A stretch of DNA of 63,606 nt, filler included, from Welwitschia mirabilis (Eukaryota): assembly GCA_051453625.1 (NCBI GenBank). It is 6 parts of one record of this genome, joined end to end, with 100 filler letters (N's around TTAATTAATTAA, not from the genome) between each part and the next. Parts side by side here need not be neighbours in the genome. Positions count along the whole stretch, not along the records: positions 20,443 to 36,663 come from JBOZIK010000001.1; 5 more parts are not named here. The stretch is one strand, 5' to 3'. The position numbers and the translations under genes are program-made. The stretch's first letter is position 1, and each line of letters opens with the position of its first letter. The notes under the pieces are model-generated. The model searched no databases and was not told the origin of the DNA. It was given only the letters and a program-made list of their open reading frames with translations. Of the stretch, positions 17,201 through 42,668 are shown piece after piece.

Positions 17201-18697
17201 GACTAGTTGAGAACTCTTAATCGAGGACTTAAAATCATGATTAAGAATGAAATATTTTCCATCTAACATACACATTATATGATTTTATTTCTTCTTCCAT
17301 TAAAATTGTTGTTTATCATATTAATATTAAATCACATGTTGTTAATCATAGCATAATAGTACTCTTAAATTGATAATCATTATTAAATATTATTATAACT
17401 TATTCTATGTATTGAAACATAATAAGTATTAATTTGTTATCTAAAGTTCACTATCAATCATTGGTGGAGCCCTCTGTTCACGGATAAAACTCGTAATGAA
17501 TACAACTATCTTAAGGTTACTTATTATTTTGGTATATATCTTAAAATATTGATAAAATTAAGATGAAAACTATGATGAAAAATAGAGAATTTTGTTAGAT
17601 AAATGCTTTATTTCATATTCTATGAAAATGTCAAATTCTAGTAATTTATCTTATGTTTAATGATGAAAGAGATGTTATACCTAGTTGGATCATATGTTAG
17701 AGTTAGAAACATTGATAAAAACTAGTTAGCATTATTTAGATTTATTATTTAGTAATGTGCACATAAAAATCAATGTAACTAGTTTTTATAAAATATATAT
17801 CTACCTCATGCACAACACTTGCCTAAACTCTTACATAATATGCATTAATTAATTATGCATTATCTTATTAATATAATATAAACAAGCAACACATTATCAT
17901 TCCTATGTAACTTATCACTAATGTGATCCTTATTACAACTAATGAGTTATGTATTAATCTTTTTCTGATGATCATACTTACATTACCTAAATTATAAAGA
18001 CAGGGAGAGAGAGATGAAACATATAGGAATATTACACAACATGATTGAAAAGTACATATTGACTGCCATAATACCTATTTGGGGATGTTCCATACCTATA
18101 TTACATAACCTTATCTCATGTACTTATATGGAATAATAATAACAATGATGTAATGGTAAAAATGTTTTGAAAGTCACTATTTATTTTCACATGTAATTAA
18201 ATGGTTTAGTGAAAAAAGATTGTTATTTATTCCATTTTACTTTTCATATGGTATCTACAATGTGTCATTACATATGACTTTTAAAATAATTATAGTAATT
18301 TTAGTGCTCGATTTAGGTTAAAATTTTTATTATGTTTTAACACTATTTCATGATAGTAATGAATACTTTAGATTAGTTCATAGTAATGTGCATGTTTCAT
18401 TTTAATTATATTTTTGTATTAATGAAAATTAATCAATGAGATGATTGGAGCTATGTAGAGATATATATTTTAGTGATGTATACCCCTTGATTACATTTAC
18501 TTTATGATTATGATATTTTTATTTTGATTATTTACATATAATTTATTATTGTAAATCATATTTATTTTTATAAGAGGGTAAGCTAAGTAGGTAGGTATGT
18601 GCCAAACAAATGCCTATTGGCACCTAAGCCCATATGAATTATAGGCTCCTACTAATGTATGGGTTTGAACTCAGGTCACTACATGAGCTATGATGTC

Positions 18698-18884
18698 TGT
18701 TAAGCGCTGAAGCATAGGATAAATGGCATTGAAGCACCAATGAACAGCGTCGAAGCGCTGATGAGTGTTGATGAACAAAACCCATGCCTAGAGTGGGTTT
18801 TATAGACAAGAAACGCTGGTGGTTTCAGAGCATTTCTGTGGGCAGAGCATCGAACGGAGTACCCCAATTGAGCCACACTTAATA
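18698..18884 (-). repeat. 187-bp 3' LTR of TRIM-like family A
   Basis: Minus strand reads PPT TGGGGGAGAT, then TATTAAGTGTGGCTCAATT...CTATAAAA...CAGCGCTTAACA. Partial second copy at 19174-19259. Confidence 0.75.
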
Positions 18885-19981
18885 ATCTCCCCCATGGCTC
18901 AAATTAGCTTGTCATGCCAAGTAACAAAAGGGCGGAAAATGCCGAAAGAGCACACAGGTGGAAACTACAACCATGCAAGCAGGAAACACTGCATTAGTAG
19001 GAGACACACAAAAGCTTAGTGCATCACGTGAGAGAGGCGACGTGGAGCAATGGCGCGGAACGACAGCGTGGAGNNNNNNNNNNNNNNNNNNNNNNNNNNN
19101 NNNNNNNNNNNNNNNNNNNNNNNNNNNNNNNNNNNNNNNNNNNNNNNNNNNNNNNNNNNNNNNNNNNNNNNNNTTTATAGACAAGAAACACTGGTAGTTT
19201 CAGAGCGTTTCTGTGGGTGGAGCGTCGAATGGTGTGCCCCAGTTGAGCCACACTTAATAATCTTCCCCATGGCTCAAATTGGCTTGTCATGCCAAGTAAT
19301 GAAAGGGCGGAAAATGCCGAAAGAGCACACAGGTGGAGACTACAACCATGCAAGCAGGAAACACTGCATTAGCAGGAGATACATAAAAGCTTAGTGCATC
19401 GCGTGACAGAGGCGACATGGAGAAATGGCGCGGAACGGCAGTTCGAAGCACAGTGGGGTGGTCAAAAAAGCATGAAGCAGCACCATCGAAGCACAGCGAC
19501 ATGGCCGAAAAAGGCAACCACAGGGATGCTGAAAACGCTCATATGGAGCGCAAAGAAAACAAGGGAAACAAAAAACCGATAAGCGTGAGCCGAAATGGTA
19601 AAGACGCATAGCAGAGTAAACTGACAAGAAAATTCCAAACAAACTGAAAAGAAGTTTTAGGATATGAGGTTTTGAGAGATCATTCCTGTGCTGCAGCAGT
19701 TGACAATTGTACAGGCGTTAAGAGCATGACATGGCAGAACTACAGATAGTTTATGAACCACCTTTGAATAACCAAAAAAGTGAAGACAACTTATGGGCTG
19801 CACCAAAAGGAACGCCAGATCAGGCTAGGCAAAGGCTGCCTTAGGTGGAAAAACTCCGCAGAGTGCGAGGAGCACAAGAATGGCAGCCAAACAGACGACA
19901 GGTGGCGGATAGCACAAGGAAGGGGAGCTATAAAAATAGTAAGAGCCGCAGCTAGAATGAGCACCGATTACAGGAGAAAGG

Positions 19982-20149
19982 CACTTTTGGGAGGTGCTTG
20001 CTATTGGCGATATTGTGGTCAAAAAGGTGCATACCTTTGAAAATCCTGTAGATATGTTAACTAAGCCTTTTCCGAAAGTTAAGTTCAAACAATGTTCGGC
20101 CACCATAGGCCTATATAACCCTTCCCTTCTAGTTAGAACGTCAATTTGA
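19982..20149 (+). pseudogene. C-terminal Copia RNase H vestige
   Basis: Open frame HFWEVLAIGDIVVKKVHTFENPVDMLTKPFPKVKFKQCSATIGL...*, matching Copia HFIRE...KIHT.ENPADMLTKPLP..KF, immediately before a PPT. Confidence 0.85.
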
Positions 20150-20163
20150 GCTAAGGTGGAGAT

Positions 20164-20342
20164 TGCTAAGATGTGTGACTCAAAGTTGAGCCCACATCCC
20201 TAAGTTCTCTAGCTGAGATGACACCTCAAACCATCAGACGCCCATGGTTTCTGTTTGAAATCATTGGGCATATTTCTCTATAAATACAATACAACCTTAG
20301 CTTTCAAAGGTTGAGAGAAAACAATATATTTCTCATATCGCT
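20164..20342 (+). repeat. 3' LTR of TRIM-like family B (last ~8 nt lost in gap)
   Basis: Preceded by PPT AAGGTGGAGAT (20153-20163). 10 mismatches in 179 nt, counted by eye, against the reverse complement of 21867-22045. Confidence 0.85.
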
Positions 20343-20442
20343 NNNNNNNNNNNNNNNNNNNNNNNNNNNNNNNNNNNNNNNNNNNNTTAATTAATTAANN
20401 NNNNNNNNNNNNNNNNNNNNNNNNNNNNNNNNNNNNNNNNNN
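20343..20442. other. Artificial contig linker N44-TTAATTAATTAA-N44 (also at 36664-36763, 52074-52173, 55322-55421, 58583-58682)
   Basis: Identical 12-mer with stops in all six frames, centred in exactly 100 positions at five places. Confidence 0.95.
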
Positions 20443-21844
20443 GCCCCTACGCACTGCATGGCCGAGCACTTCTCATCCATGCCTATGCCATCTGTCATCC
20501 GCGTCTGCCCATTACTATTGCTTTGTCTGCGCGAACACTCTCCGCATCTGCAGCCGCCTCCTACTGGCTTTATGTACGCCCTTGACCACCGTTTTACGGA
20601 CTGCTTCAATCTTCTCTACGCGCCCGCATTTCTTAAGTGCCTTCTTCCATTGCGATCCTTTCCGCTTACACGGCCTCTGCGCCTACACCTACGATNNNNN
20701 NNNNNNNNNNNNNNNNNNNNNNNNNNNNNNNNNNNNNNNNNNNNNNNNNNNNNNNNNNNNNNNNNNNNNNNNNNNNNNNNNNNNNNNNNNNNNNNAACAC
20801 TCTCCGCATCTGCAGCCGCCTCCGACTGGCTTTATGTAAGCCCTTGACCACCGTTTTACAGACTGCTTCAATCTTCTCTACGCGCCCGCATTTCTTACAT
20901 GCCTTCTTCCATTGCGGTCCTTTCCGCTTACACGGCCTCTGCGCCTACACCTACTATGTGCCTTCTGCCAATGCGGTTTGCTCCGCTTGGATGGTCATGT
21001 TTACGCCTCTCGCACACTTTTCGCCTGGCTGTCTCTGTCTGCGCTACGTCTATGTGCATACTTGCTGCTTTCATGGCTTTTCTCACTAGTGCGTTGCTCT
21101 TCGACACTTTTTGCCAGTAAGGCTCATTCCTGCTTGATGCCTCACCTCTGTCTGTGTGTGTCAGCGTTTTTTTAATTTTTTTTTGTTCTTGCGGATTTTT
21201 TTGTTGCTGATCCCTTTCACCAGCCTCCATGACTCCCTTTCGCCAGCGCGTGTGCAGCTTAGAGATTTTGTCTCTATTCCTTCTCGGTTGTGTTTTCCTA
21301 CATTGACAGATCCTTCGCCGCATCGCTGTGATTTCCAAATTTCCCACGGTGCTGCTTTCTTCTACGTCGGCGTCTAAAAGAATCCAGGAACGTCGGAACA
21401 AAGAGAGGCACAGCAGTTGGGAAGAGTGATGACTCTAAAACAAGCACCGAGTAATCTATAGGAAACACAGGGCAGGCAGGAAGATGGCCCAGAGAGGTAA
21501 GCAGTGAACGCAAGCACGGACGCTGAGTAAGGGCGGAAGATAGCAAGTGGACGTGATTCATTGATCCTTTGTAGTGCTGATCATAAGTTGGCACACAAGG
21601 CAAATTTAATTTAATTTCCGGTTTGGCAAGAAGCGAAGCAAAAGCTGTTGAGCCAGGAGGAAACTCCGCGCTAGCGCATAATGGTAGGGAAAACAGTGGC
21701 ATGAGAACCATTAACCAGCGAGGCAGAATGGCAAAGCGCTGAAAAGCAGCATGGAAGAATGGCGGGGCGCCGAAAGCACAACAACGCTAACGGTGCAGGA
21801 GGATGGGCATGTGAAGAATGCGCAGAAGATGGACACGTCAAACG

Positions 21845-21856
21845 GCTCTGATACCA
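21845..21856 (-). other. Primer-binding site, initiator tRNA-Met
   Basis: Perfect TGGTATCAGAGC 2 nt downstream of the LTR end ...GCTCTACA on the minus strand. Confidence 0.9.
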
Positions 21857-21858
21857 TT

Positions 21859-22045
21859 TGTAGAGCAGCGCTATGAGAAATATATTGTTTTCTCTCAAAC
21901 TTTGAAAGCTCAGGTTGTATTGTATTTATAGAGAAATATGCCCAATGATTTCAAACAGAAACCATGGGCATCTGATGGTTTGAGGTGCCATCTCAGCCAG
22001 GGAACTTAGGGATGTGGGCTCAAATTTGAGCCACACATCTTAACA
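21859..22045 (-). repeat. 187-bp 5' LTR of TRIM-like family B
   Basis: TG...CA ends (TGTTAAG...CTCTACA), internal CTATAAAT, followed by the PBS. Confidence 0.88.
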
Positions 22046-22410
22046 ATGTCAATTCCTAAAAATAGAACTTATGGACTCTATATTGCATCATGTCAACTAA
22101 TTATATGTCTACACTATGATGATCATTCTTCTTAATGTGATGATGACTTGGAGATATAAGTTAAACCTTTTAAAACTATACTCCTACTATTTAATCAGAT
22201 GTACATATACATTACAATAGTTATTAAGATATTTTACTATTAAACTATTTGTATTACAATGTATGTATTATATATCCATACATAAATTAATCCTCCTTGT
22301 GTAGTAAAGATCTTTTAGTTATTTTGATTCCTATCCATAATTGTTCTCCATGTATAAACTCCATAAGCATCTTCATTTGTTAAAGGAATAAGTCTTATAG
22401 GTTACACAAT

Positions 22411-22640
22411 TTACTTAGCCACTTAAATTCCCTCATCCAACTCATACTTCCCTATATGAAATATGTCAGACTTATCTAAGGAAATTTTGTGATTATATAA
22501 GCTAAGTCATTACAAAAAAAAGGTTTTACTTAGCCACTTAAATTCTCTCATCCAATGCATACTTCTCTATATGAAATATAAGTCATAGACTTATTTAAGG
22601 AAATTTTATGGTTAGACAAGCCAAGGCAATCTATAAGAAA
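22411..22640. repeat. Tandem duplication, ~115-bp unit
   Basis: TTACTTAGCCACTTAAATTC(C/T)CTCATCCAA...AAGGAAATTTT begins at 22411 and 22526 with no gap between the copies. Confidence 0.8.
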
Positions 22641-23749
22641 GGTTTTGATAAGATCATTTGTTAATTTTTTGTAATAGAATTTTTAAGCATTTGATGACAA
22701 AATATAAAACTATATGTATGGTAGCTACTTCCAACTACCCTTAAATAAGTTATCATGTTAAGAAAAGCTTATAAATCTTAAATGTAATAGCACGTTCCAA
22801 TGAACACTAGATGTTGATAAAAGAGTTACTTATTTTTTTTGGGGGGGGCGGGGAGAAAGGAGTTAGTTTACTTACCTCCTTAATGCTTTACAATACTTGT
22901 AACACTATTATACTTATTATCATAACATAAAAAGCCATATCTTTGGTTGAAATCTAAAAGTCCATAAATAAACCCACTCGTTGGCTTGAGCATGGAAAGC
23001 AAATATTGAATGTAAAATTGTCTTAAAATGTTTATGAAAAAACTTTTCATTGTATTATAGATATTGAACATGGAGCATATTGGACCATTAAACAATTAAA
23101 AATTAATCATTTAAAATATTTAGAAATATAAAAGGCGAACTTAATGAGTTGCATGAGACTAGGAATCAAACTTATGAAAATTACAAATTCAAACGAATAG
23201 AATGAAAAAGTTCCTTAACATACATATCCTTTAAAAAACTTATTTTCCTTATAAATATATATTTTTTTGTAATTATAAATTTTATCTCTTTCCTGAAACA
23301 TAAATAAAAAATGGAGTGGTGATGTTTAAGTTTAAATAAAACTTATTTTATCATTTTTTTTATTTCTAATTTAAGTCTAAAAACAAACAAGAGATTTAAA
23401 GCAAATGAACAATGATTAAAACCTATATCATTCTTCCATCATCTTTATGTTAACTAACTCAAATTCTTCAGGTTCTGTTAGTTTCATTTTTCATGTTTAT
23501 TAGTTCAGAAACTACTAAAGTAAAATACTATAAAGTTTTTTAAAATTAAAAATAACCTTATTATAAATACATTAAGTATGATAAGTGGATTGAGAAATTG
23601 CAGCTCTATCAACCCTTCTCAGAAACGTCCAAATATTTCATTTTTAATAGTTGGATAGAGATACCAAGTTGTATGTTAACAGACTTTCAATGAAGAATTG
23701 CTAAAGAAGATTGATGATATAAAAACAATTGCAATACATATCTGTATGT

Positions 23750-24979
23750 TCATACATCTGTTGAATGGTAGGTGATTTTCCTACCCAAAGGGATACTTTC
23801 GAAGCCTGGCGGAGGTCCAAGGGGACGCCGAATGAAGCCTGGCGGAGGTCGAATGGGACGCTGACTGAATCCCGGCGGTGGCCCAAGCCGACATTGCCTG
23901 AAACCTGGCGGATTTTCGAGACGCAGTTCGTTGATGCTTTGACAATGTCGCAGAAGATAAAGTGCGCTGAGGCATGCTTGCCACAAATAACAAGGCTCAA
24001 CCTGCGGGTCCAGCTTGAAAGCAGAATTGAAGTAAAGAAGTTGAAACTCTTGCGCAGAAGGAAAATTGAAGTAATAAGGAGGAGAGTGAAGCTTGTGCTG
24101 GGGCGTTAGCGTAGAAGGAAAATTGAAATAAGGAGACTCAAGCGCTTGCTGCGCAGTTATTCTAGTCTGTGGATTTAGGTCGAGCATTCTCTCCAGCAAA
24201 TCGACTGCCGATGGTTCTGCAATGTCTGAGAACTTGCAGCGCAGCTCACTTAGCCCATTCGGAAGCGCCCTACATGTGCTTCTTATCGAATCCAGCGTTT
24301 CGAGGTCGGACTCGCAAGGAAAGAGCGGAGAGCCCTGCAGCAGCTCTGCAAACACGCAGCCGACTGCCCAAATATCGATTTCTGGGCCGTATGTGACGGC
24401 GCTTCCGTCCAAAAGCTCTGGGCAGCTATACCAGAAAGGGACCAGTCCTTGTGTCATTTTCTCGTTTGCTAATGGATTCCAGTCCCTGGAGAGCCCAAAA
24501 TCAGCGAGCTTAACGTGGTTTTCATGAGAGATGAGAATGTTATGCGGCTTGATGTCGCGGTGAAGAACGTTGTGACAGTGGCAGTGTTGAACGGCTTGCA
24601 GAAGCTGCTTCATTATCATTTTAATCTCTTCCGCAGAAAATCTTCTTCCTATCTTTTTGGAGGCCTTCAGAAGATCGTTTTCCACATACTCAAAAACCAT
24701 GAAGACCTCGAAAGTATTGGCAACTACCACTTCTTTGAGAAGAACAATGTTGGGATGCGGCTGCAGCTTCCGTAGCAGAGATATCTCCCTTTTAAGCATG
24801 GACGTCTCATATCTGTCTGTGGCGCGAGTTAACGGAGTTCGAAGCTTCTTGACGGCAACGATTTGGCCTGAGGATCTGTGAAGGGCTTTGAATACTTCTC
24901 CGTAGACACCCCCACCCAGCTTCTCCAATTTGATGTACGCATCCATTTTTCCAGGGCAGATTTTTCGCAACCCTATCAT
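23750..24979 (-). CDS. Intronless divergent cyclin-dependent kinase-like (CMGC) protein with PPGF-repeat tail, 409 aa (possible start at second Met, 24946)
   Basis: Uninterrupted ORF with all kinase subdomains: GGGVYG, VAVKK, REISLL, HPNIV, VFEYV, HRDIKPHN, LADFGLSR, WYSCPELL, DIWAVGCVFAEL, PLFP, RITAQQAL. MDAYIKLEKLG resembles CDKA MDQYEKVEKIG. Confidence 0.92.
   Translation of the reverse strand: MIGLRKICPGKMDAYIKLEKLGGGVYGEVFKALHRSSGQIVAVKKLRTPLTRATDRYETSMLKREISLLRKLQPHPNIVLLKEVVVANTFEVFMVFEYVENDLLKASKKIGRRFSAEEIKMIMKQLLQAVQHCHCHNVLHRDIKPHNILISHENHVKLADFGLSRDWNPLANEKMTQGLVPFWYSCPELLDGSAVTYGPEIDIWAVGCVFAELLQGSPLFPCESDLETLDSIRSTCRALPNGLSELRCKFSDIAEPSAVDLLERMLDLNPQTRITAQQALESPYFNFPSTLTPQHKLHSPPYYFNFPSAQEFQLLYFNSAFKLDPQVEPCYLWQACLSALYLLRHCQSINELRLENPPGFRQCRLGPPPGFSQRPIRPPPGFIRRPLGPPPGFESIPLGRKITYHSTDV
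23784..23914 (-). repeat. Four in-frame 33-bp repeats encoding (P)PPGF 11-mers
   Basis: Units start GAAGCCTGGCGG (23801), GAAGCCTGGCGG (23834), GAATCCCGGCGG (23867) and GAAACCTGGCGG (23900). Protein: NPPGFRQCRL GPPPGFSQRPI RPPPGFIRRPL GPPPGFESIPL. Confidence 0.9.
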
Positions 24980-25031
24980 TATAAAGGAAGATAATATGGA
25001 ATATCTAAAATTAGCAATGGAATCTTCATCA

Positions 25032-25090
25032 AAATAGCATATACAGCTGTCCTATCTTTATAATTAGCATGTACAGCTGTCCTGTCTTTT
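25032..25090 (-). promoter_or_regulatory. Candidate core promoter of the kinase: TATAAA inside a 30-bp tandem duplication with two CAGCTG boxes
   Basis: TAGCAT(A/G)TACAGCTGTCCT(A/G)TCTTT occurs twice. TATAAA on the minus strand at 25057-25062, about 80 nt upstream of the ATG. Confidence 0.35.
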
Positions 25091-25149
25091 AGCTTCTTTT
25101 AGGAATCTATTCTTGTTGCTTTCTAACATTGCAAACCTCTTGGTATATT

Positions 25150-26858
25150 CAATTTCTTCTCCTTGAAATTCATGATTTCTCTGGTCTTCTTGATGCAAGC
25201 ATAGCCCCTTCAACATGAATGTTGTCTCATTTCTCCTCTACTCTTGCCTATCCCAAGTTTACAACCAATAAACTTGTCTTCAGTGATCAAGGCAATCATT
25301 TTTTTCCCTGTATCCAAACTATGTTTATTCCTCATAAAACATCTAATGAAGGCTATTTTAGAAAAATTGCTTTCTCCTTTTTTAGAAATGCATAGCCTTC
25401 ACCTTTGTAACTAACTCTACTTGCTCAAGGCCTCGATCAATTAATAGGTCACTCTATCATCCACACCAAATCTCTGTCCAATGCACCCACTTTTGCAAAT
25501 CACCCATCTCTAATTTCAATCTTATTGATTCAATCTTAGATGGCCTTGGACATGAATCCATGGAGTTCATTATTTCAATCCATGTTTACTGGGCTATCAC
25601 TTTTTATAAGGTCTAAGAGATTCTCCTTCAAGAAGACGCTTTTCTCAAGAAATGTCCACTACTTTTGCATGTGCTACTGCTTTCACTACTAACTAAGCTT
25701 CCAATGCTAATTCTTCCAAAAATAATCAATAACCAGCAATTTCTTCTTCACAAACACTACCCAATTAGTCAACATTTAGGGCATGTGGTCAAGGTTATGG
25801 TGAAGGTAGGGAAGAGGTGTCAGTAGCTATTCATTTCAACTTAACCTAACCTATCATTTTCATCTTCTTCCAAGTCCAGCATCCATGAATTCAACTGTCA
25901 TCTATCATATCTACATTCAACTATGTGATGTAGCTTGTCTATGCTTTCATCATGGTAATTATGCTTATATGACTAAATCTCTCACTAATGTTGTCAGTAG
26001 AACTCATCTTTCTAATCTTGAGTGGTGTCCTAACTATGGGGCTACACATCACATGATTACTTTTACATCTAATTTCTTGGATGAAGGCATTTCCCTCATC
26101 ATTACAACCACTTTTTACAATTGATCTCTTGCATGCTGGCATTAGTACTTTACCTTACTGATTTGGTTATTTCCATCTCGAAGATGTGTTATGTATGCCT
26201 TAACTTAACAAGATATTTATAATCTATTCCTCAAGTTTGTTTTTTCTTAAGATGAATCCTAATGATTTCAAGTTAAGGAAAATAAGATGGGACTAGATGA
26301 GACTAGTTAAAATGGTTTCTACACTCTTCAATTCACTCTTAAAATTTCATCTCATTTTCTCTTATTTGGAAGAAAGATAGATCAAGATATTGGATATGCT
26401 TAACTTTCTTATCCCTCCTGTGCTACATTCAAGGTCTTGGTGAAAAAAATTTAACCTTCCTACTTATGGTAGTATCAATTTGAATAAAATGTATCATGGT
26501 TTTCCTCTAGAAAAGACTTGTAGACTTTAGTTTACTAACCATATGTTTAATGCAGAATTCACATCTTATGTATAGGGATCTACACTTATTACTATAAACT
26601 CTAAGTTTTAGTTTTATTTGTTTATTATTAGTGATTACAGTTAATATCTTTAGCTTTATCTACTTATTCATATATTACATGTTTATCATATTTTTCTGTA
26701 CATCAAAAAGATCATTGAAAATATGCTATCTAGAAATACAACCTATATTCAAATTGATGGGGTGAATAGTTCATTTTCTATATTTTTAGTAATTTTCTAT
26801 AAAATGATGGCATCACTCATGATTATCTATTATACATAAATACTTAAGTAAGATGGTG
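25150..26858 (+). mobile_element. Decayed Copia gag-protease-integrase, interrupted by family D insertion
   Basis: EWCPNYGATHHM (WYPDSGATHHM protease) at about 26020-26056. Integrase-like segments resembling HSDVWG, IDDYS, IQTDGG and QNGV up to about 26858. Confidence 0.65.
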
Positions 26859-26859
26859 T

Positions 26860-29800
26860 TTTTTTAACATGTAAAAAATAATATTCTAAGTAAGTATAGT
26901 TGATCAATTTAGCATAGGGAGAGATATTAAATTAATTGTTTTATCATAAAATGATGTTTTCTACCATTTTNNNNNNNNNNNNNNNNNNNNNNNNNNNNNN
27001 NNNNNNNNNNNNNNNNNNNNNNNNNNNNNNNNNNNNNNNNNNNNNNNNNNNNNNNNNNNNNNNNNNNNNNTATTATTTTTCATGAAATTATGAATATTTT
27101 CCTAACATAAGCAAGTTTGTTACTACATTATGAATATCACTACAAAACTTTATGAGAGTCCAGCAAACAATGCTAGTACTACTAGGTAGGACTACTTCCA
27201 TCACTAGTTAGGACTACAAGTGTCATCGTCCTTCTGAGTCAAAACATGAACAAACTCACATTCCTATATCTTTTGGGGGAATTAATAAAATTTCACTTTT
27301 GGAATAAGTTAAAAATAATCTAGAATAAATCTTTAAACCTAATGACACTTGGTGAAAGCATAAGATGACATGTCACAGTGACATGTGGTAGCAATTAGGA
27401 TGAATACATGGAAGACATATGATGTGGCATTTGTTGGTTATGTCATTAGCAGTTAGGAAACATGTCATCACTAGGTTTACATAAGAAGACAAAGAATCTT
27501 TGCTTATGGCTACATGCCACATGTTTATAACTTGCTCCTTAAGTAATTATCCTTAAGTAGCCCCTCTTATGTAACCACCCATCTAATGTATCATGATAAC
27601 ACCTAATGTAATCATAACAAATCTGTCTAAGCCTTCCCTCCTTTATAAAAGGGTCCTAAATGCGTATTGCAAATATCTTTTAGTTGACTTAATATAGGAA
27701 ATACTTCAAGGGTAGGATGACATGGTGCTCTAATAATTTTTTTCAGGGGCAGAATAATTTAAGGCTAGTTGAGGAGTCTCTCTTCTTCACCTTTTTCCAT
27801 TTAATGTAATGTATATTTATTTCAGATCATAATATAAGAATTGGTTTAAATCATTTTATTATTACTACACAATTCATTTAACATTAGCAATATTTAGATA
27901 GAAGTAGTTCTTAAGTAGGTTTCTTCCTTTTATTATTATTACACAATTTGTTTGACATTAGGAATCTTTAAGTAAGTTCACTTAATTATTAAGTTCTTTC
28001 ATATTGAGGATGTTATTAGAAGTTACTTCTTGCCTATTATAGTTTCTATCTTTTAATAGATCTTATGCACATTTGTTCATACTTTTTATGCTTATGAAGG
28101 GCTATAAAGAATTAGTTACACTAGATAACTTACCAACACTCATGTGATGGATAACTTATACGTCCACATCGAGTCTTAATGACTTGATGATTTAGTTTGC
28201 ATTTTAGGATACATGAATCATTGAAATAAAGGTGAAGTGTTGGGCAAATTAATTAGCTCTTTAAAGCGCTTTCGTTCCCTTATATCACCAATTTAAAATC
28301 ACTTTCTTCTTAATTTCCAGATTTCTTTTGTTTTGAATTTTATTTTAAGTTAGAATAATTATCTATCTTTTCTAAAGTTCCCACATATATTCCAATAAAC
28401 GAATGATAAATTAGTTTAAATCTAGTTCACTTTTATAAATGAATAGATTTTGATGCTACTATTGAGAATATATGGGCTAGTTTTTCAAAGTGTATGATTT
28501 TTCTTCTTGTAAAGTTTTTACTTAGTTTTTATTTTTCTAGTGATGGGTATTGGTCCTCATCTAATGATATCTAAACTAATCCTTTTCTCTTTTATTTTTT
28601 TGTGTTTTTCCCCTTCTGGTGATGGGTATTAGTCCTTTCCTATAAAACCCAAATTGACCCATTTTTATTTGAGTTTAGTTTTATAATCTAACTATTTCTA
28701 TATCTGATAATTTCATATTGCATGTCCAGCAACATTCTTATAGGTTGTAACTAAAATTGAGATTAAAAGATGAGAAAAACTAAATTCAACTCTAATCATT
28801 TTTCATGTGTATTTTGTGTTTCTATGATTTTTGTGAGACTCTATAAATTTTATAGCTCTGTAAAGTTTTATTTTTGTTAAAAGTTTAAAAAAATGTTTAG
28901 GTTTATTTTCCTAGGTTGCATTTTTATGAGTTGCACTCAATTTAGGATTTTTTAAAATTTTTTTCAGACCCCATAACCAAAACCATTTCATTTAGACTAA
29001 ACAAAAACTTTGTATTTTTTTCTAATCACTTATGTTTAAAACACTAGCATTATTGTGATTAGTGATGTCAGCCTTCCTACTCATAATAGCCTAAAACTTT
29101 GATGGTAACCTCTTAGAAACTCTTTAAAAATTTTTCAATTATAGGATTCATCTAAAACTATTAAAAATTAGGAAAATATGAATCTTTAGCTAAACTATAA
29201 ATCATTTGACCTAACCCTTTAGAAATGCCTTTCGCACCAAAACCTATCTACTCCTATAGTTTTCATAATTGTGAAAATCCAAACAAATTATAAGGAACTT
29301 TATAAGATCTAAACAAACTTTAAAGGGTTATCTTCAATGTGACTCATACCAACTTAGAGTATGCTTAACCCTATCCATACATGAATCAATCCTTTTACAA
29401 TTTTAAAAATTCTTACATTGAGCAAAAAGAATTTGATCGTATACTCTCCATTTTATCTTAGAATTCATATCCTTTACCCTCATTTATATATTTACCATTA
29501 TTTAGCACTTATCCTCCATTTTTCTTCCAATGTCCTTTATAATTTGATCACTACTCGTCATCTTCATACACTCAACAATCCATTCATCTTCCTTCAAAGA
29601 TACTTTTCAGAGATTTTTAATAGATGTAATTAAATCTTCTTCCAACTTATCATTATTTCATTCATAATCCCTATAAGAAACCACTAATTAAACTAACAAA
29701 AACATTGAACATGTCCTTTAATAAATAGTTAAAAGTAATGATGAAATCCTTAGTGCTCTTAAATAATGATAGTTAGAAAAAAACCTTCATAAATTCTATG

Positions 29801-29995
29801 AAAGAACAAGCCTTAAATACTTTGAAGGAATTAATGAGACTAGAATTAATGACATCCAAATAAAATCCCTTATAAATGANNNNNNNNNNAAACCCTTGAA
29901 ATAACCCATAACAAAACCTATGAAAGAGAACCTTGAATTCCAAAATGCCTTAGAGTATAATTAATTAGGTGCATATAGTTTACACTTTAGAGTAC
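26860..29995 (+). mobile_element. Family D copy 2 (5' LTR ~26860-28220 plus part of body)
   Basis: Reverse-complement homology to 6850-9905. Starts ...TAACATGTAAAAAATAATATTCTAAG, like the D LTR terminus. Confidence 0.6.
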
Positions 29996-29996
29996 A

Positions 29997-32900
29997 TGAT
30001 CATAGGTTTATAGTAATCCATATTTAAACTAAGTGAAACACTTGGTATCATTCTTCCACAGGATATATGTGGTAAATTTAATCAAAAGATACATGATTAA
30101 TTCTACCTGCAATAAAACTCAAAAAACTAAAAAAGAAAAGTTGGGAGAAAATTTAATCTTTAATTGGTAATGTAAAAATATAAAATGCTTTAAGGATCTA
30201 GCTATTCATCCAACTATCCACCTCTTCTGTAATGATTCTTATATCCTAAAACATGCACTAAATTATGAAGTCATTAAGGCTCAGTGTGGAGGATAATCTC
30301 ATCCATCACATGAAAGTTAGTGAGTTATCTAGTCATCCTGATACTTCATAACCATTTAGAAGTGTAGAAATTATAAATTGCAGTGTACAAGATCTATCAA
30401 ATAATAAGAACTATAAATCACAAAAGTAACCTCAAATAACTCACACAATTTGAAAGAACTTGATAATTAAATAAGATCATCTAAAAATTACTCATATCAT
30501 TTCTAATCATTAATAATAAAATAATGAACACTTTTTAAGAATGTCCTACCTAAATATTTCTAATGATAAGTAAATTCCATAATATTAATGAAATGGTATA
30601 AACTAATTATTTTATTAAAATTGAAAGGAATATACATTACATCATAAGAGAAGGATGAAGGAAAAAGACTTTTTAATTAGACTTGGATCATTCTACCCAT
30701 AAGAAAGGTCTTAGAGTATCATGACATTCAAGCCTCCAAGTATTTCCCACATTAAGCTAACTAAAGATGTTCACAGTAAGTACTTAAGGTCCTTTTATAG
30801 ATGAGAAAATTCTAAAGGGATTTCATCATTATTACATTAGATGAGATTAATGGAGAGTTACATAACATGTGCTATAATGGGTGGTTACTTAAAGAAGAAG
30901 TTATAAACATTTGACATTTAGCCATAAAGAGGATTCCTGTATCTTCAAGTGTAAACACAATAATGACATGTATTTTGATCATTAATGCTACTGATAATGG
31001 ATTCCATGTCATGTATCTTCATCTTGATCATGCTTATTAAATCACATATCACTCTGATGTGTTGATTTGTACTTCTGATAAATGTCATCAGAATTAAGAT
31101 TAAATCTAATTTATTATTTAATTAAACCCATAATTACAAAGTGACTAATTCCATGAAACAATTGCAAGAACATGAGTTTTAGGGCAGTTTACTTAAGAAG
31201 GTTGATTTCACTAGTAGACTTTGTCGATAGTGCTAGTGTTTTATGCTAGAATATGATTAGTTAGGGCATAGGCTTTCCAAAGGCTACAATGTACTTTCTC
31301 ATGTTAAGAAAAGTTGAAAATTATATTTCAAAGTAACAAAAAGGATTGAAAACATTAATATGTGATAAAACAATTAATTTAATATTTTTGTTATGCTAAA
31401 TTAATTAATTTAGTTACTTAGAATGTTAATTTTGACATGCTAACACACCTCCTAACTAGTTTTTTATTAGTCTCTTAGCAAAAATTTAAGAAATGATGTT
31501 ATGGAAAAATTGATAAGTGAAAAATGACAAGTAAAGAAATGATATAATTTTTTTTAGAAATTTTTAATCAATGTTTTAATAATTAGACATCAAAATTGGA
31601 AAATTTTTAATAAAAGCAAATGCCATCACCTCCTAACGAGTCTTTCACTAGTTCCTTAGCCAAAATTAAAGAAATGGTGTCATAGTAAAATTAACTAATT
31701 AAAAAATGATAAGTAAAGAAATGATATGACATTTTAAAAATTTTTAATCAATTTTTAAAAATTAGGTATCAAAATAAAAAAATTTATAAAAGTAAGTTCC
31801 ATACCTCCTAATCAAAGTTAAACTTTATCCTCAAAGTTATAAATATAGGAAATTTTATAAGTCTTTTGAGAATAAGTTAATAACATGGCTAGTGAATGAT
31901 TTGATGTATGTACTTAGGCAAAATAATGCAATGCAAGGCTTAGATTAAGATGTAATTTTTATGAAATGCAAAACATTAAAACTAATAGAAAATTCCATTA
32001 TTCATTAATTCAAAATATAAAATACCTAGGTTAATGCCACATTTATTGAAAAGTTCATAAATTTTATTTTAAATTTAAAATGTATCACATTTATTACATA
32101 AACAACATATCCTCTAAGTATTCACAAAAACCATCTTCTAATTCCACCTTTCATATGAATTTACCTTTTCTTCAATCACACCTTATTTTTTGTTTCAAGA
32201 ATTTTGATGTAATTGGATATTTAGTGTTGTGAAATATCCTTTTGAAAGTGTTAAGCATGTTAATAAATGAAGGAGTTAGTGCTACATTGCAAGTGAGCAT
32301 TTATAGCCCCAATGTAGTTGAACATGTCATAAATTATCTTGTTAGAGCTACATTACTTACAAACATTCATAGTCTTAATGTAGTTAACTAAATCTACTTT
32401 TAATTAATTGTAAAATAATGTGCTTTTAGAAGAGGACATATTTTATTTTCTTTTTAATCATCATTCTCATATTCAATGCATTTTGATGCACATAAATGAG
32501 TTATTGACTCATTAGCCTAATCAAAAATATTCTTATTCTCATAAAATTCTTGTAAAACAACTAACTTGACATGAAAGTAGATTCCAACTTAATTCAATCA
32601 TATTTTCCAATTAGGGGACCTTAATTAAAACTAAACGTGGATAAGTTAACTTGAAAATAAATAAAACCTTTTATTGAAAAAATATAAGTAAACATAAATT
32701 CTACCTAGATCAAAATGATAAAGAAATCACTTATTAGTAGTTTCTTCCAATTAAGGATCATTAACTATGATAATCTACTATAAAGTATTCATAAATGAAT
32801 GGAAAGAAAGGATGGTTAGTGGAGTTTATTAGGTGAAATGGAAATGAAAGGGATAGGAAATGGGATTTAAGGCAATGATGATTTATTTAGTGAAGTAGGT

Positions 32901-34659
32901 GATATTGGGGTTTTCTACTTAAAAATGTTTAAAATAGTGATTATATAGGTGGAAGTGTTTAGGTTGTTTTAGGCATAAAAGGGCATCAAGCATAAACTTA
33001 TTTAAAGATCAAAATCTATTCTAAAAGAAAAAATTATTCCAAAAAATTATAAATTAAAATCACACAATGAAGCAAAACATTTTTCAAGACATTTCTCAAT
33101 GCATTGCAAATGTGAAGGCTCAAAATACTAAATGCAATGTTTGAATGACAAGTCAAAATTGCATAACACATTCAACAAGGAGATTGAATCTGTATAAATA
33201 TTTAAACATAAATTCATAAAATTTTCAAGAACATTTATGCTAGTAGTAAAATTAATTCATTTAAAATTAGAAATATTCTAGTCCTTAGCCTGTCTCTATT
33301 TACTCAATAACTTTCATAGGATATTATATTCATGTGAATATAGAGATGTGTTGGAAACCATAGAAGAAGGTGATTGATCATTAAGAAGGATATCAAAAGA
33401 TGGCTTCAAAGGCATAGAATTGCTTTCTTCATTATTAAGGTTTAAGTATTACTCAAAAGATAAGAATGAAAATCTTATAATGAATTCAAGATGTTATTAG
33501 CAAGTTATTGCACAAAGAGTGGATCATTAAAAGGATCCTAGTTAATATTCTTCTCTTCGTTAAGATTCATAAAGGATTCTTCTTCAAGAAATTGTGCAAA
33601 AAACATTAATTGAAGTTCAAAGAAGTCAATGTCTTGTATTTTATTTATTTCACCTATGAATTCATCCTTTGTTGTATAACATTCAAGTTTTCCTTCTTTC
33701 TCAAATGTTTTCTTACTAACTATAGAATGATCATCATTATTTAATGTATCTAATTTTACTCTAAAGTACAATCTAGATGCACCTAATCAATCACTATTTA
33801 AGGTATGTCTAAACTTGGAATCTTCTTAAATATGATTATTGATTTCATTATGGGCTTCTTCCTCATTCCTAAGGGATAACGTTTGGATTTTATTAATCTC
33901 AATCCTTTCAAGATTTCTAGGATTAGGTTTAAAGGATATATAAAGTTATTCCTCTTCTTATTAATTAAGTGTATTAAACATTTGAGTAGTGACTTAATTT
34001 AACTATTGAATATTCTACTTAAGCCTTTGGTTTATTTGCATTTAGGATTTTATAAATCTTGTAAGTATGTCTTCTAAGTCATTTGAAAAGGCTTTTTGAG
34101 GTTCTAGGAGATGAATGATAGTTGATAAATGATGAAAAATATAAAAGAGAAGATGGAGGATATTTAAGGAAAGATGAAGGATAAGAATTAAAGGATGAAG
34201 TGATTTATTAGTTGTATGAAATTAACACATGATGCAAAGATGAAGGAGATGAGAAGTAAGATGAATACTATGGGTCAAAGAATAATGATAATAAAGGATA
34301 AAAATTAAAGGATGATGAATGTGAGGTTAACCTATATGGATTATAAGGAGTAAATAAAGGCATGGGATTAAAATCCTATGGGTTGATATAAGAATTTTTA
34401 AATTGAAATTGTAAGAAGATTGATCATGATATGGATGGAATTGAAGATGCTTTTCAAAGGTCTATCTAAGTTAGATAATGTTTCTTATAGTTCATTTGGA
34501 TTGGTTATGATTCTAGAAGGTATAGAAGTAGACAACTAATTGATTAGAAGGTGTTTAAAATGGATTCAAAGCCCAAATCATGGTTTAATCTTAAGAAAAT
34601 AGTTAATAGTTTCAGCTAAAGATTCATGTTTGTTATATTTTTTATAGCTTTAGAGGAAG
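29997..34659 (-). mobile_element. Family D copy 3 (3' LTR ~29997-31445 plus body), nested in copy 2
   Basis: 30040-31445 is collinear with 8480-9905, and 31446-34659 with 4541-7745. PPT-like GTTAGGAGGTG lies next to the LTR start TGTTAGCATG. Confidence 0.65.
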
Positions 34660-35827
34660 TGTTGGTAACCTAAATTGTGCTTCAAAAGTAGTCAATTATA
34701 GAAATAATGTAATGGTAATTAGGCTTAGAGTAGGATGATTCAAAAAATAAAAGTCATAATCTGGAGAGCACAAGGCAACATACTAATCAAGCACATAATT
34801 TATAAAGAATAACCATTGAAATTTAAGTACAATCTCTTTAAAGTATTTTATATTTTGTTATGAAAAAAAGAACAAGAAAAATGCAACTATTTAATTATGA
34901 AATGCAGAATAAATGATAAATGATGAATGCAAGCCTAGGATAACCAATTTCGAGTTGTTACCATCTAAACTTAGCCCTTATGACCTACATTAAATTAAAA
35001 TTAATCTAAATGAAGGTATTAATCAAACATAACACAAGCCATAAGAGAAATAAGATGATTTAGAGAAAGAAGACATTTTATTCAATAATTCTAATGTCTT
35101 ACAAATACCTCANNNNNNNNNNNNNNNNNNNNNNNNNNNNNNNNNNNNNNNNNNNNNNGAACAATCTCTCCTAATGCTAAAATAGACCATTGAGGCCTTT
35201 GGATGCCTTTGTCACCAATTCTTAAATGTCAAAAAGATGCCTAAATAAGGTCAAATGGAAGTTTGTATAGTTTTCTAAGGTGGTTATGAGTCTAAAAATT
35301 TGTACAGGCAAAAAGGCATCATTAGAAATAAATTATACCTTAATTAACTTAGTTAGGAAGAAGTTATGATGCTGTCATGTTACTATCATCATGTGGATGA
35401 CATATGGCATGACATCCCTTCATCATCCAATCATAGGCTTCCCCATTGGGAGATCCTTGGCATTTGAATTTGAACTATAATGAATGTATCATTCCTTGTG
35501 TCATGTGGATGACATAAGGCATGATAGCATGAAGTTAGCACCACTTAGTCAGCAACTTCATAACCTTTTTCAATGTTATTATGGCCTATGTTGTGGGGAT
35601 GATAAGAGGAATGATAGCCAATTCTTTGAGATTTTTTTTTGATCTTTTCTCTAATATTTCCTTTATTAAATTCCTGCTCTTATGAATGAAAATATAGTAA
35701 TTAAGAACACAATTGAGTTATTGTACTACTTCATGATAAAGTTTCTAAAAATGACTAAATTTAGTTCTTTTTCCTATAAAACATCATCAATTAAAATATT
35801 AAGATATGAAAAATTAGTATCACAACA
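34660..35827 (-). mobile_element. Athila-like Gypsy LTR (family E) interrupting D copy 3
   Basis: TGTTG...CAACA termini. Internal TGTCATGTGGATGACA palindromic motifs. Followed by a degenerate PPT-complement and TAGTCCCT, as at 49786-49815. Confidence 0.5.
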
Positions 35828-36815
35828 TAAAATCACACCTAATGTTTTATTAGTCCCTTAAAAAACAAAGTAAAAGAGGACTTTACGATGGTAATTAATT
35901 AGGGAAAGAAAGCCTCAAGATCTAATTAAAAATCATTTTACATGTTTAGACACACTAGCAATTAAGATAAAGAAGTCATCATAAGAATAAGCATTACATA
36001 AATATCAACTACCAATTTAAGAACACTGTGTATGAGTATAATAGGGTGAAAGAGTCACAATTTTCATATAACTCAAACGATAAGACTACATTAGAAATAA
36101 TAAGTTTATGTATGAAGAGGAATGGAAGTCAACCTCCATATTAATATCTCTCTTACTACCTATCTCCACAGGTGGCTCAATGATAGACTCCTTAATGTCT
36201 GGAAAGTAGTAAGAGATGTGCTCTTATAAGCTAGATGTAGTGACATTGTGATAGATATGAAGCATCTCAGGGGTGCTCACTAAAAAATCCTACTAAATGT
36301 TTAACAAGGTAGCTTTACCCTACTTCTTTATAACTCAAACACATGCCTTCAACTGATCAAGTCATGTGGTCGTATGGACATGAAAATGCTCCATCTGATA
36401 AGATAATCTTTCATGAAAATTCTTCATTTGTAAAGATAATATTTGCTTCATGCTTTCTAATAATTCTATAAGATATTCAAGTGTAATACCTCCAGCTACT
36501 TAAGGCTATCTAGAAGGAGGTGGAGGTGGCTGAGCTATAGGGGCCTTACTAAGAGACAGTGGAGTCATACCTGGGATCTCTATCCCTAGTCTGTGAAAGT
36601 ATGTATCATTAGCTGAAATATGGACTAAATGAGGAGTATCTGCTAGGATAGGGATCTTGAATCNNNNNNNNNNNNNNNNNNNNNNNNNNNNNNNNNNNNN
36701 NNNNNNNTTAATTAATTAANNNNNNNNNNNNNNNNNNNNNNNNNNNNNNNNNNNNNNNNNNNNTTAATTGGGTTAAGCATGCTTGAAGATTGTTATCATA
36801 AGAAATAAGTTTAAG

Positions 36816-37412: not shown

Positions 37413-39094
37413 CTTTAAATATTAATGGTTAATAGAATCCTGAATGTAATATTTTCATGGGAATATTGTATCCACTCAAATGACCTCTACAAATGTTTCC
37501 ATGACAAAGAATAAGGATATCTTTTTGCTTCCATTTGAAAACACATTTTTACATTACTTAATCTTTGCATCACCTATGTAGATATGGTTTGATCCATTCA
37601 TAGTTACCTATTCAATGGAGCAAAGATCTTTATTAACTTTTATTCCAATGTGAAGGTGTTTTGAGTGTGATAAGATAATTCATGATATTAGTGTACCAAG
37701 AAGTAGTTTTTTTTAAAGACACTTCACAAAATTACTCAACCATGAAAATTTGTTCCTCTAGAAAATCATCATAAATAGACTGATCAAAAGAATTGGGAGA
37801 AGGTGTGAAGGAATTCTAGAAAGATGATCAACTATTATATTTTTTTTCTACTTTATCCACTATCANNNNNNNNNNNNNNNNNNNNNNNNNNNNNNNNNNN
37901 NNNNNNNNNNNNNNNNNNNNNNNNNNNNNNNNNNNNNNNNNNNNNNNNNNNNNNNNNNNNNNNNNTCACTTCACAAAATTACTCAACCATGAAAATTTGT
38001 TCATCTAGAAAATCATCATAAATAGACTGATCAGAGAATTAGGAGAAGGTGTGAAGGAATTCTAGAAAGATGATCAGCTATTAGATTTTTTTTCCAACTT
38101 TATCCACTATCATCAAGTTAAATTCTTGTAATAAAAGTATCCATCATATAAGGGGTGTACTATAATATCTCTTTGTCATTAAATATATAATGTAGCATGA
38201 TTTATATAAACATTAAGTGTGGAAACCCATGAGGTAATGTCAAATTTTATCTAAATAAAAGATGATTGACAGCCTCTCATTTTTAGTAGTATTATAATTA
38301 AGTTGAGCATTAGAAATGGTTTTACTAATGTATCTAATTACTTTCATCCCTTTCTCATGTTTTTATCTTAACNNNNNNNNNNACTAATGTTGCACATTAG
38401 CTTAAATTCCTTATTCCAATCTAGTTCACTCATAATGGGTCCATTGGTAAGGATGTTTTTAAGATTCTTAGAAGCTTATTGAAAATCATCATTCCACCTA
38501 TACTTAAAATCTTTGTTCAAGAGTTCATGAAGTAACTTACAAATTTTTTTCATATCTTTTATTAATCTATAATAAAATTTGCAATGTTCCAAGACTGATC
38601 CAAGTTGTTTCACATTAGTAAGAGGAAAATGATTTTTAAGGACATCAATTTTTAAAGGATTCAGTTATATACATCTCATTAAAATATGATGTCCTAATAC
38701 TATCCCTTCATTGGTCATAAAATGGTTTTTTTCCCAACTAAGATGAAGTTTACTTTCAATACATCTTTCTAAGACTTGTGCTAAATGATTTAAAGTTTGA
38801 TTAAAATAATCTTCAAAGACTAAAAGAACATCCATAAAAATTTTGATAGAGTTCTGTACAAGATCACTAAAAACTCCCATCATAGCATGTTGAAAGATAC
38901 CTGAAGCATTACATAAATTAAAAGGCATTTTCTTAAAAACATAAGTATCAAAAGGAAAAATGAAAGTAGTCTTGCTTGATNNNNNNNNNNNNNNNNNNNN
39001 NNNNNNNNNNNNNNNNNNNNNNNNNNNNNNNNNNNNNNNNNNNNNNNNNNNNNNNNNNNNNNNNNNNNNNNNNNNNNNNNCCCAGGAGGTAATG

Positions 39095-39794
39095 TCAAAT
39101 TTTATCTAAATAAAAGATGATTGATAGCCTCTCATTTTTAGTAGTAGTATAATTAAGTTGAGCATTAGAAATGGTTTTACTAATGTATCTAATTACTTTA
39201 ATCCCTTTCTCATGTTTTTGTCTTAACTCTCCATCTATAGCAAGATTACTAATGTTGCACATTAGCTGAAATTCCTTATTCCAATTTAGTTCACTCATAA
39301 TGGGTTCATTGGTAAGGATGTTTTTAAGATTCTTAGAAGCTTGTTGAAAATCATCATTCCACTTATACTTAACATCTTTTTTCAAGAGTTCATGAAGTAA
39401 CTTACAAATTTTTTTCATATCCTTTTATGAATCTACAATAAAATTTGCAATGTTCTAAGACTGATCCAAGTTGTTTCACATTAGTAAGAGGAAAATGATT
39501 TTTAAGGACATCAATTTTTAATGGATTCAGTTATATACATCTCATTAAAATATGATGTCCTAATACTATCTCTTCATTAATCATAAAATGGCTTTTTCCC
39601 CAACTAAGGTGAAGTTTACTTTCAATACATCTTTTTAAGACTTGTGCTAAATGATTCAAAGTTTGATTAAAATAATCTTCAAAGACTAAAAGAACATCCA
39701 TAAAAATTTTGATAGAGTTCTGTACAAGGTCACTAAAAACTCCCATCATAGCATGTTGAAAGATACCTGAAGCATTACATAAACTAAAAGGCAT
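39095..39794 (-). pseudogene. Gypsy RT / RNase H fragments (duplicated at ~38231-38975)
   Basis: ORFs 39531-39794 and 39095-39418 carry MPF.LCNA..FQ, FMD, KSHFM.NE.IVLGH and AQLNYTTT motifs. The catalytic DD is degraded to DV. Confidence 0.85.
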
Positions 39795-41843: not shown

Positions 41844-42668
41844 TTAAGCTCTTTCAAATTCATTACAAAGTTGACTCCTTCTCAAATTCATTTCAAAGTT
41901 GACTCCTCCATGTCTATGAGGGGTTCGGTAACCATCCTCATCAAATGTTGACTCCATAGTTTTTGCTTCCTCTATGTCTTGGATTGTAATGTTGTCAAAG
42001 GTTCTTTCCATTGGGGGTTCCATAGTATTGTCGAGTTCACAAGGGTTGATGGAATTAAGACTACTTAAAATAGTTGAGAATTCCTTCATATCATCAAAAA
42101 GAGTTGGTTGTTCATGAGTGAGGGATTCCAATTCAAGTGAATGATGTGGTACAAAAATAGTTGATCTAATATCTTCACTCAATTCATCATTTGGATCTTT
42201 TGTGTCTTTTTTTGCTGTGTTGAGAACTTGAACTTGAATCTTTTTGCTTTCTATATAAAGGTTCATGATTCCTATTCTAGTGTCTATGATGCAATGGGCA
42301 GTAGCACAAAAAGCTCTACCTAAAAGCAAAGGATGCCCGCCATCGTGATTGATCTCAATAATTATGATGTCTATGGGGTAAAAAGCTGCTTCTATTTGGA
42401 CAACCAGATCTTTAATAATTCCAATGGGTTTTCTCAACATTGAGTTAGCCATTTCCAAGACAATTTTAGTTGGTTTAATTCGCTTTTCTAGTCCAAATGT
42501 TTTGCAAATATGCAGAGGTGTGATGTTCACATTTCCACCTATGTCTATAAGAGCCTTCTTAACCTTTTTGTTGCCTTCTAATATCACAATAATGGTTGCT
42601 GCCCTTAGATCTTTGAATTTTGGACACTTTTGTAATACCAAGTTGGCCATAGATTGAGCTAAAAACAC
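41844..42668 (-). pseudogene. Gypsy aspartic protease region, 274-aa open fragment
   Basis: PKFKDLRA..KALIDIGGNVNITP..LEMANS..KPIGIIKDLVVQIE..YPIDII..LLLGRAFCATA..ID matches the Athila protease pattern. Confidence 0.85.

Follow-up and report, generated by a model that had tools for sequence, protein, structure and literature searches.

In a stretch of 63,606 nucleotides from Welwitschia mirabilis (GenBank assembly GCA_051453625.1; six parts of one record joined end to end, hereafter the window), the part that comes from JBOZIK010000001.1 (positions 20,443 to 36,663) contains a minus-strand gene predicted to be intact and intronless, which encodes a strongly diverged kinase of the CDK family (CMGC) with an extension carrying a tandem array of PPGF motifs. 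About this anatomy of the gene we are highly confident. The explanation that we find best overall, i.e. a kinase gene with a PPGF tail through which the product would dock on GYF-domain proteins, is proposed more tentatively, and we would give it somewhat less than an even chance. The coding sequence (CDS) runs without interruption from the ATG at 24946 to the TGA at 23750-23752 (23750..24946, minus strand; 398 codons plus the stop; protein P0002). According to stop-to-stop scanning and translation, the frame stays open for 35 codons further upstream of this ATG; the ATG itself occupies the position aligned with residue 1 of CDK3, and from there on the open reading frame (ORF) is colinear with CDKs in the phmmer alignments to PDB sequences. 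Translation and alignment to CDKs revealed no intron. Residues 4-274 (24125..24937, minus strand) constitute a protein kinase domain (Pfam PF00069, Pkinase; E-value 1.5e-67), which is the sole non-transposon Pfam domain among the 36 ORFs of the window that were scanned, and tblastn found no second copy of the gene elsewhere in the window. The 124 residues behind the kinase domain, 275-398, form the tail.

The array consists of four 11-residue units (residues 345-388; 23783..23914, minus strand; consensus PPPGFSQRPLG), as seen in the translation and by repeat finders. With a period of exactly 11 residues (33 nucleotides), PPGF recurs at residues 346, 357, 368 and 379, that is at 23900-23911, 23867-23878, 23834-23845 and 23801-23812, and the units read NPPGF, GPPPGF, RPPPGF and GPPPGF. 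Tandem Repeats Finder reported a 33-nucleotide period at 23801-23887 (2.6 copies, 81% matches, score 118), and a second repeat search agreed. The first-pass annotation of this DNA, made by a model without database searches, had placed four 11-residue repeats, bounded at 23784, at the very end of the tail: the four PPGF units stand, but this boundary is one base off and ten more residues (389-398; 23753..23782, minus strand), with a GC content of 0.33 and not a single CpG, follow the array.

The same annotation had described PPGF as invariant amid varying linker residues and synonymous positions, and a count of the changes between units bears this out. DNA identity between pairs of units ranges from 0.48 to 0.79, with a mean of 0.611. 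A CCG codon opens each PPGF, and the three codons that follow are CCA GGT TTC in one unit, CCG GGA TTC in another and CCA GGC TTC in two. Hence the PPGF codons contain no change in their eight first- and second-position columns and a minimum of three changes in their four third-position columns; in the seven remaining codons of each unit, at least 14 changes are required over 14 first- and second-position columns, i.e. the linkers are saturated. It should be kept in mind that this invariance of the motif within variable surroundings was observed between the four units of one locus. Gene conversion alone was considered as the cause of the identical PPGF and was rejected, since there are three synonymous differences among the codons. 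In a neutral simulation, four copies were allowed to diverge from the unit consensus, and any cyclic run of at least four invariant residues was counted among stop-free trials, a criterion that allows for the post hoc choice of the motif. Such runs appeared in 33 of 16307 trials at an identity of 0.617, matched to the observed 0.611, in 111 of 17688 at 0.660 and in 775 of 20150 at 0.734, the model behind these figures being a star tree with uniform substitutions, applied to no more than four units. We regard the evidence that this comparison of the units provides for constraint on PPGF as fair rather than strong, and it is probable that the motif has been kept by selection.

A different view of these data would make the array a young minisatellite within a coding sequence, without a function of its own and situated in an orphan, intronless, retrocopy-like and perhaps weakly expressed or silent copy; the conservation of PPGF would then be only apparent, the repeat being recent and small. 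We regard this as rather unlikely. Statistics drawn from four units are thin, and at an identity of 0.73 the simulated runs already amount to 3.9% of the trials. However, the units are old, since they share only 48-79% of their DNA and their linkers are saturated, and yet PPGF has undergone no non-synonymous and three synonymous changes. The gene is both intronless and an orphan, which is what one would expect of such a copy, but its kinase domain retains every invariant residue at about 40% identity, a feature which, as discussed below, argues for long-term purifying selection. The tail has visibly been built up by tandem duplication, the C-terminal end of the kinase itself being present in a second, near-identical copy; several frames of the tail are almost free of stops, and its CpG-rich state is common to a nearby young-looking transposon block (observed-to-expected ratio, o/e, 0.72); against this, the CpG-rich block of the gene ends with the ORF and lacks flanks resembling untranslated regions. 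No A-run was seen directly past the stop codon, target-site duplications not having been searched for. Neither the window nor the protein databases searched contained an intron-bearing parent or a paralogue, and no flanking repeats mark the kinase gene as the cargo of a mobile element; the only long inverted repeat lies to one side of it.

The way in which the tail has grown can be read from its sequence. The C-terminal end of the kinase domain is duplicated in frame and in tandem (24062..24130, minus strand): YFNFPS at 24119-24130 is repeated about 18 codons later as YYFNFPS at 24062-24076, with DNA that is near-identical between both copies except for a 3-nucleotide insertion, and a weaker third copy, YFNS, is found at 24023-24034. 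Together with the PPGF units, this means that the tail has been extended by at least two separate in-frame tandem duplications, every one of which is a multiple of three nucleotides. Between these two repeated regions lies a Cys- and Leu-rich segment (residues 298-343; 23918..24055, minus strand). In an AlphaFold2 model built on an alignment of 97 matches (mean predicted local distance difference test score, pLDDT, 80.4), helices are predicted there at residues 298-311 and 318-343, the segment as a whole having a pLDDT of 55-69. Residues 344-398, i.e. the array and what follows it, are predicted to be disordered, with no secondary structure and a pLDDT below 50 for 344-377 and 379-398. The tail has no relative in Pfam, among PDB sequences or in the ESM Atlas; its single PDB sequence match, at an E-value of 0.68, was regarded as due to chance.

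The most telling sign that the tail is coding is its composition, which equals that of the kinase domain and differs from that of the flanks. The tail has a GC content of 0.50 and a CpG o/e of 0.90, and the kinase domain has 0.49 and 0.87, respectively. Outside the ORF, the CpG o/e drops to 0.29 on its 3′ side and to 0.11 on its 5′ side, and elsewhere in the window it is 0.13-0.14. The GC content falls from 0.52 over 23800-24099 to 0.28 over 23500-23799. The CpG-rich, GC-rich block that matches the CDS (23800..24966, no strand; 64 CpGs) begins 20 nucleotides before the ATG and ends at the last PPGF, and the nearest CpGs beyond it are at 23626 and 25434. Besides, the frame of the tail remained open in just 157 of 20000 nucleotide shuffles. 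These observations bear on the possibility that the array is absent from the mature protein, an intron or early polyadenylation removing it so that the product ends soon after the kinase domain, as ordinary CDKs do. The alignment lends this some plausibility, typical CDKs stopping about 20-25 residues past the kinase domain, but the frame is continuous through the array, GC and CpG remain at coding level up to the last PPGF to fall about 50 nucleotides ahead of the stop, and each duplication within the tail is a multiple of three nucleotides long. Furthermore, matches to the AATAAA consensus occur only 248 and 385 nucleotides past the stop codon. We consider loss of the array from the protein very unlikely.

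Some details of this region are recorded here for their own sake. The last 16 codons (23753-23800) contain no CpG and are AT-richer, and a trailing half-unit, ESIPLG, looks like a unit with decayed CpGs; the CpG-protected block ends inside the ORF, right after the fourth PPGF. Two further long ORFs overlap the tail, one of 114 amino acids on the plus strand (23765-24109) and one of 134 amino acids in another frame of the minus strand (23701-24105). Pfam gave zero matches for both. With them, three of the six frames come close to being free of stops over the tail.

Several results weigh against the idea of a translated, functional and conserved tail. Across the tail, the other minus-strand frames hold only one and two stops, and one plus-strand frame holds two; a codon-usage likelihood that took the kinase domain as its training set failed to single out the coding frame of the tail. 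The openness of the frame is therefore, by itself, weak evidence. Likewise, 51 of the 63 CpGs in the CDS involve the third codon position, so that their survival reflects youth or absence of methylation-driven decay rather than selection at the protein level. Since the transposon-like block nearby is CpG-rich too (o/e 0.72, as given above), the youth of the sequence, and not its function, could explain part of the composition signal. No orthologue or paralogue emerged from the full-length or tail protein searches. A word search with the tail (residues 275-398) gave 259 candidates, none with an E-value of 10 or less, and when 1.84 billion representatives were searched exhaustively with it by HMMER, four proteins matched at an E-value of 0.001 or less, all of them long repeat proteins unrelated to kinases.

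Only one of the tail matches shares the motif, a protein of 1216 amino acids (P0125; E-value 1.5e-07, 50% identity over 43 residues) with PPPGF arrays of its own that have the same 11-residue period; it contains ten PPGF in all, most of them in these arrays. It differs in not being a kinase, its only domain match being a weak one to MIF4G_like_2, and in having other linkers. The resemblance looks like the outcome of independent repeat evolution, i.e. convergence rather than homology. As a side observation, P0125 might represent a second, independently evolved example of multivalent PPGF.

What could such an array bind? The first-pass annotation had named PPG followed by a hydrophobic residue (PPG-Phi), and PPGF in particular, as the ligand of GYF domains of the Smy2/GIGYF type, including the plant protein EXA1, and the papers cited next agree with it. 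For Arabidopsis PSIG1 (= EXA1), the GYF domain is reported to recognize PPGF and to bind SMG7 through a C-terminal PPGF, binding being abolished by the G933A change in SMG7 or Y575A in PSIG1, and P-bodies contain PSIG1 (PMC5657617). URT1 has a conserved PPGF within a disordered region, and a contact with EXA1 was proposed by the authors (PMC7910438). In human GIGYF1/2, the GYF domains take up PPG-Phi peptides in the form of a polyproline-II helix, the Gly being required sterically and Phe being accepted by the Smy2-type pocket; ligands include TTP, with a tetraproline region containing PPPPGF, and ZNF598, which loses binding when its three PPPPGF motifs are mutated, while RPPPGL is common to TNRC6A and TNRC6C, and EXA1 itself has a PPPGF thought to be autoinhibitory (PMC10187677). 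All four units of the array conform to the consensus of PPG plus a hydrophobic residue (F/L/I/M/V) given in two of these papers (PMC10187677, PMC5657617), and residues 344-398, to which they belong, are predicted to be disordered, as would suit an accessible ligand. Compared with TTP, ZNF598, TNRC6, SMG7 and URT1, the kinase has in common the core motif (with Phe, except for the RPPPGL of TNRC6), present in multiple copies in a disordered region, one of its units even reading RPPPGF. It differs in that those proteins are RNA-binding or decay factors with scattered motifs and demonstrated binding, whereas here we deal with a kinase whose regular tandem array of 11-residue units is a candidate ligand.

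These units match published PPG-Phi ligands and lie in a region predicted to be disordered, and it is for this reason that multivalent docking on a Smy2/GIGYF-type GYF protein is the mechanism that we favour. We infer the step that leads from motif to binding, and the mechanism as a whole is put forward tentatively, as something that may well turn out otherwise. Each PPGF would adopt a polyproline-II turn and insert into a GYF domain of the Smy2/GIGYF type (EXA1/PSIG1 type in plants), where it would occupy the hydrophobic groove and the pocket for Phe. Single PPG-Phi sites are weak and several together give avidity; four weak sites placed 11 residues apart would thus provide avidity or rapid rebinding. 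The kinase might in this manner be concentrated on the GYF-4EHP particles of translational repression and mRNA decay, where it would phosphorylate neighbouring proteins.

Another possibility is that the tail is functional but that PPGF or PPPGF is read by a different proline-motif binder: a penta-EF-hand protein of the ALG-2 type, which recognizes PxPGF in a Ca2+-dependent manner, or a module of the WW, SH3 or profilin type. According to PMC4346919, the type-2 motif of ALG-2 is PxPGF, and the crystallized ALG-2/Sec31A peptide contains PPPPGFI. Three of the four units here fit P.PGF, a point in favour of such a reader and to the detriment of a GYF domain, and a PPYY site of the PPxY type (24071-24082, residue 289) lies upstream of the array. 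The first unit, NPPGF, fits PPG-Phi and not PxPGF, however, and the residues common to all four units are precisely the PPGF core that defines GYF ligands. The likeness to the type-2 ligands Sec31A and PLSCR3 consists in PxPGF as provided by PPPGF in three units; in the same paper these ligands are single sites in mammalian trafficking proteins (PMC4346919), whereas here the first of several units does not conform, and the resemblance is a match of motif. Plants probably have ALG-2-type proteins as well; the one plant paper searched for them gave nothing. We consider another reader of the motif improbable, and we retain docking on a GYF domain as the preferred reading of the tail.

The kinase itself appears to be in working order. 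Its landmarks are kept, namely the G-loop GGGVYG, VAVK, the alpha-C Glu in REISLL, HRDIKPHN, DFG and CPE, and in an alignment of 98 sequences it retains 18 of the 18 invariant and 24 of the 30 near-invariant family columns. It is thus probably catalytically competent, to judge by these residues. A frame of 398 codons in which all 18 invariant residues are kept at about 40% identity speaks for long-standing purifying selection on this domain. In the AlphaFold2 model, the pLDDT of the domain is mostly above 90. Its initial description as a CDK-like kinase agrees with the Pfam match already mentioned and with the best matches in both sequence and structure: the top four phmmer matches among PDB sequences are CDK3, two entries of a CDK2/CDC28-like kinase and CDKL1, followed by CDK1 and CDK2 (E-values from 2.6e-52 to about 1e-47), and a Foldseek search of the PDB placed CDK2, CDK3, Pho85, CDK5, CDK11 and CDK12 on top, with target-normalized template modelling scores of 0.79-0.91.

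There are also departures from CDKs. T165 aligns with the activation-loop (T-loop) Thr of CDK3. In CDKs a cluster of three Arg coordinates the phosphate of this Thr; here R53 and R130 are kept and the Arg of WYRAPE is replaced by S174, the motif reading WYSCPE. In the cyclin-binding helix, REISLL is retained; TSMLK, with one residue inserted, takes the place of PSTAI, and just ahead of it an Arg has replaced the near-invariant Gly. The CMGC insert is, in the alignment, about 20 residues shorter than in CDKs. Because the Arg of WYRAPE is lost and the CMGC insert is shortened, regulation in the style of CDKs appears uncertain, and this, too, counts against taking the protein for a CDK with an added docking tail.

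To which class does it belong? In the full-length protein search, the best of 904 significant matches are 40-42% identical and restricted to the kinase domain, and no match exceeds 43%; the best ones come from several groups (plant CDKC-like, CDK20, CDKD/CDK7, Pho85, CDK5 and protist kinases). The kinase was also placed by quick maximum likelihood in a tree of 38 rows, where it sits at the end of a branch of 1.06, as compared with a median of 0.29, and no supported clade holds it; it falls outside the CDKC/CDK9, CDKD/CDK7, CDK20, CDK5/Pho85, CDK10 and CDK12/13 classes, in a tree from which CDKA, CDKB, CDKE, CDKG, CKL and outgroup kinases were left out. In the feature-based search of the ESM Atlas, clusters of MHK, MAPK, CDK20, CDKL1, CDK2-like, CDK8 and GSK3 kinases tie in score. 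The cluster ranked first there is a plant one, as are the closest kinase matches of the protein search, and the repeats of the window also look plant-like. A CDK-like CMGC kinase, with CDKs as its nearest relatives and without an assignable class, seems to be a fair name for it as far as its sequence goes. Among the 120 nearest kinase matches, none has two or more PPG[FILMV] motifs, and a single PPGF is present in only three. Together with the placement in the tree, this upholds, for the classes covered there, the remark of the first-pass annotation that no CDK class with such an array was known to it.

With CDK1/2/3/5, Pho85 and the plant CDKC/CDKD kinases, the protein shares the fold, the catalytic motifs, a start residue that corresponds to that of CDK2/3, the REISLL remnant and the activation-loop Thr. 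What separates it from them is an identity of at most 43%, the long branch without a place, the replaced PSTAI, WYSCPE, the short CMGC insert, the intronless gene and, above all in the present context, a tail of 124 residues without relatives, while typical CDKs end about 20-25 residues past the kinase domain. Each component is of a known kind, CDK-type kinase on the one hand and PPG-Phi motifs on the other; what is new is their combination and the regularity of the array. No kinase with a PPGF array, and no CDK docking on a GYF domain, came up among the papers listed by full-text searches of open-access literature, as judged from listings and abstracts. One could go further and see in this gene a lineage-restricted, CDK-derived kinase which would no longer be under CDK regulation and would be dedicated, through its PPGF array, to the GYF/4EHP (EXA1-type) machinery, phosphorylating factors of messenger ribonucleoprotein particles or of mRNA decay in P-bodies or stress granules. 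In this strong form we hold the proposal to be unlikely.

The implications depend on which of these views is correct. Translation of immune receptors, susceptibility to viruses and mRNA decay are all under the control of GYF adaptors, which are GIGYF1/2 in animals and EXA1/PSIG1/MUSE11 in plants; the PPG-Phi clients known for these adaptors bind RNA or take part in its decay. If docking via a multivalent array is true, a kinase would add a signalling input to GYF particles, and the gene would show clearly how a protein can gain a new function when a short linear motif is duplicated in tandem downstream of an old catalytic domain. Should the gene be silent or the array neutral, we would be left with an ordinary orphan, retrocopy-like kinase gene in repeat-rich DNA.

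Upstream of the gene, a TATAAA match (25057..25062, minus strand), which is a match to the consensus only, has its upstream end 116 nucleotides before the ATG. It sits between two 28-nucleotide direct repeats, 25032-25059 and 25062-25089, which are 89% identical. The rest of the window, with a GC content of 29% outside masked stretches (N makes up 6.2% of its length), contains no other cellular gene that could be seen by Pfam among the 36 ORFs, and scans of the window with Rfam and for tRNAs gave 0 matches. The low CpG o/e outside the kinase ORF, 0.13-0.14 as stated above, fits old, heavily methylated repeat DNA. Retrotransposon domains are found on the minus strand: reverse transcriptase at 38668-38979 and 39534-39848 (E-values 4.3e-09 and 1.8e-08) and RNase H at 39098-39424 (7.1e-19). 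Since the two reverse-transcriptase fragments flank the RNase H fragment, these decayed pol pieces (38668-39848) are partly duplicated or nested. An ORF of 294 amino acids at 41847-42728 has zero Pfam or database matches, and matches of window ORFs to DUF3915 (E-value 0.0073) and DUF5349 (0.1), both below the cutoff, were put down to chance.

Beside the kinase gene, 20159-20342 and 21867-22050 form the sole long inverted repeat, with arms of 184 nucleotides that are 94% complementary and 1524 nucleotides apart; the pair encloses tandem units of 162 nucleotides at 20534-20957. At 19768-20149, on the plus strand, Pfam is negative for 19768-20037, and two overlapping ORFs resemble, by eye, the C-terminal end of a copia-type polyprotein. 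The block 18000-22100 as a whole, with a GC content of 0.43 and the CpG o/e of 0.72 already quoted, is unlike the rest of the window and looks like a younger, non-autonomous DNA transposon.

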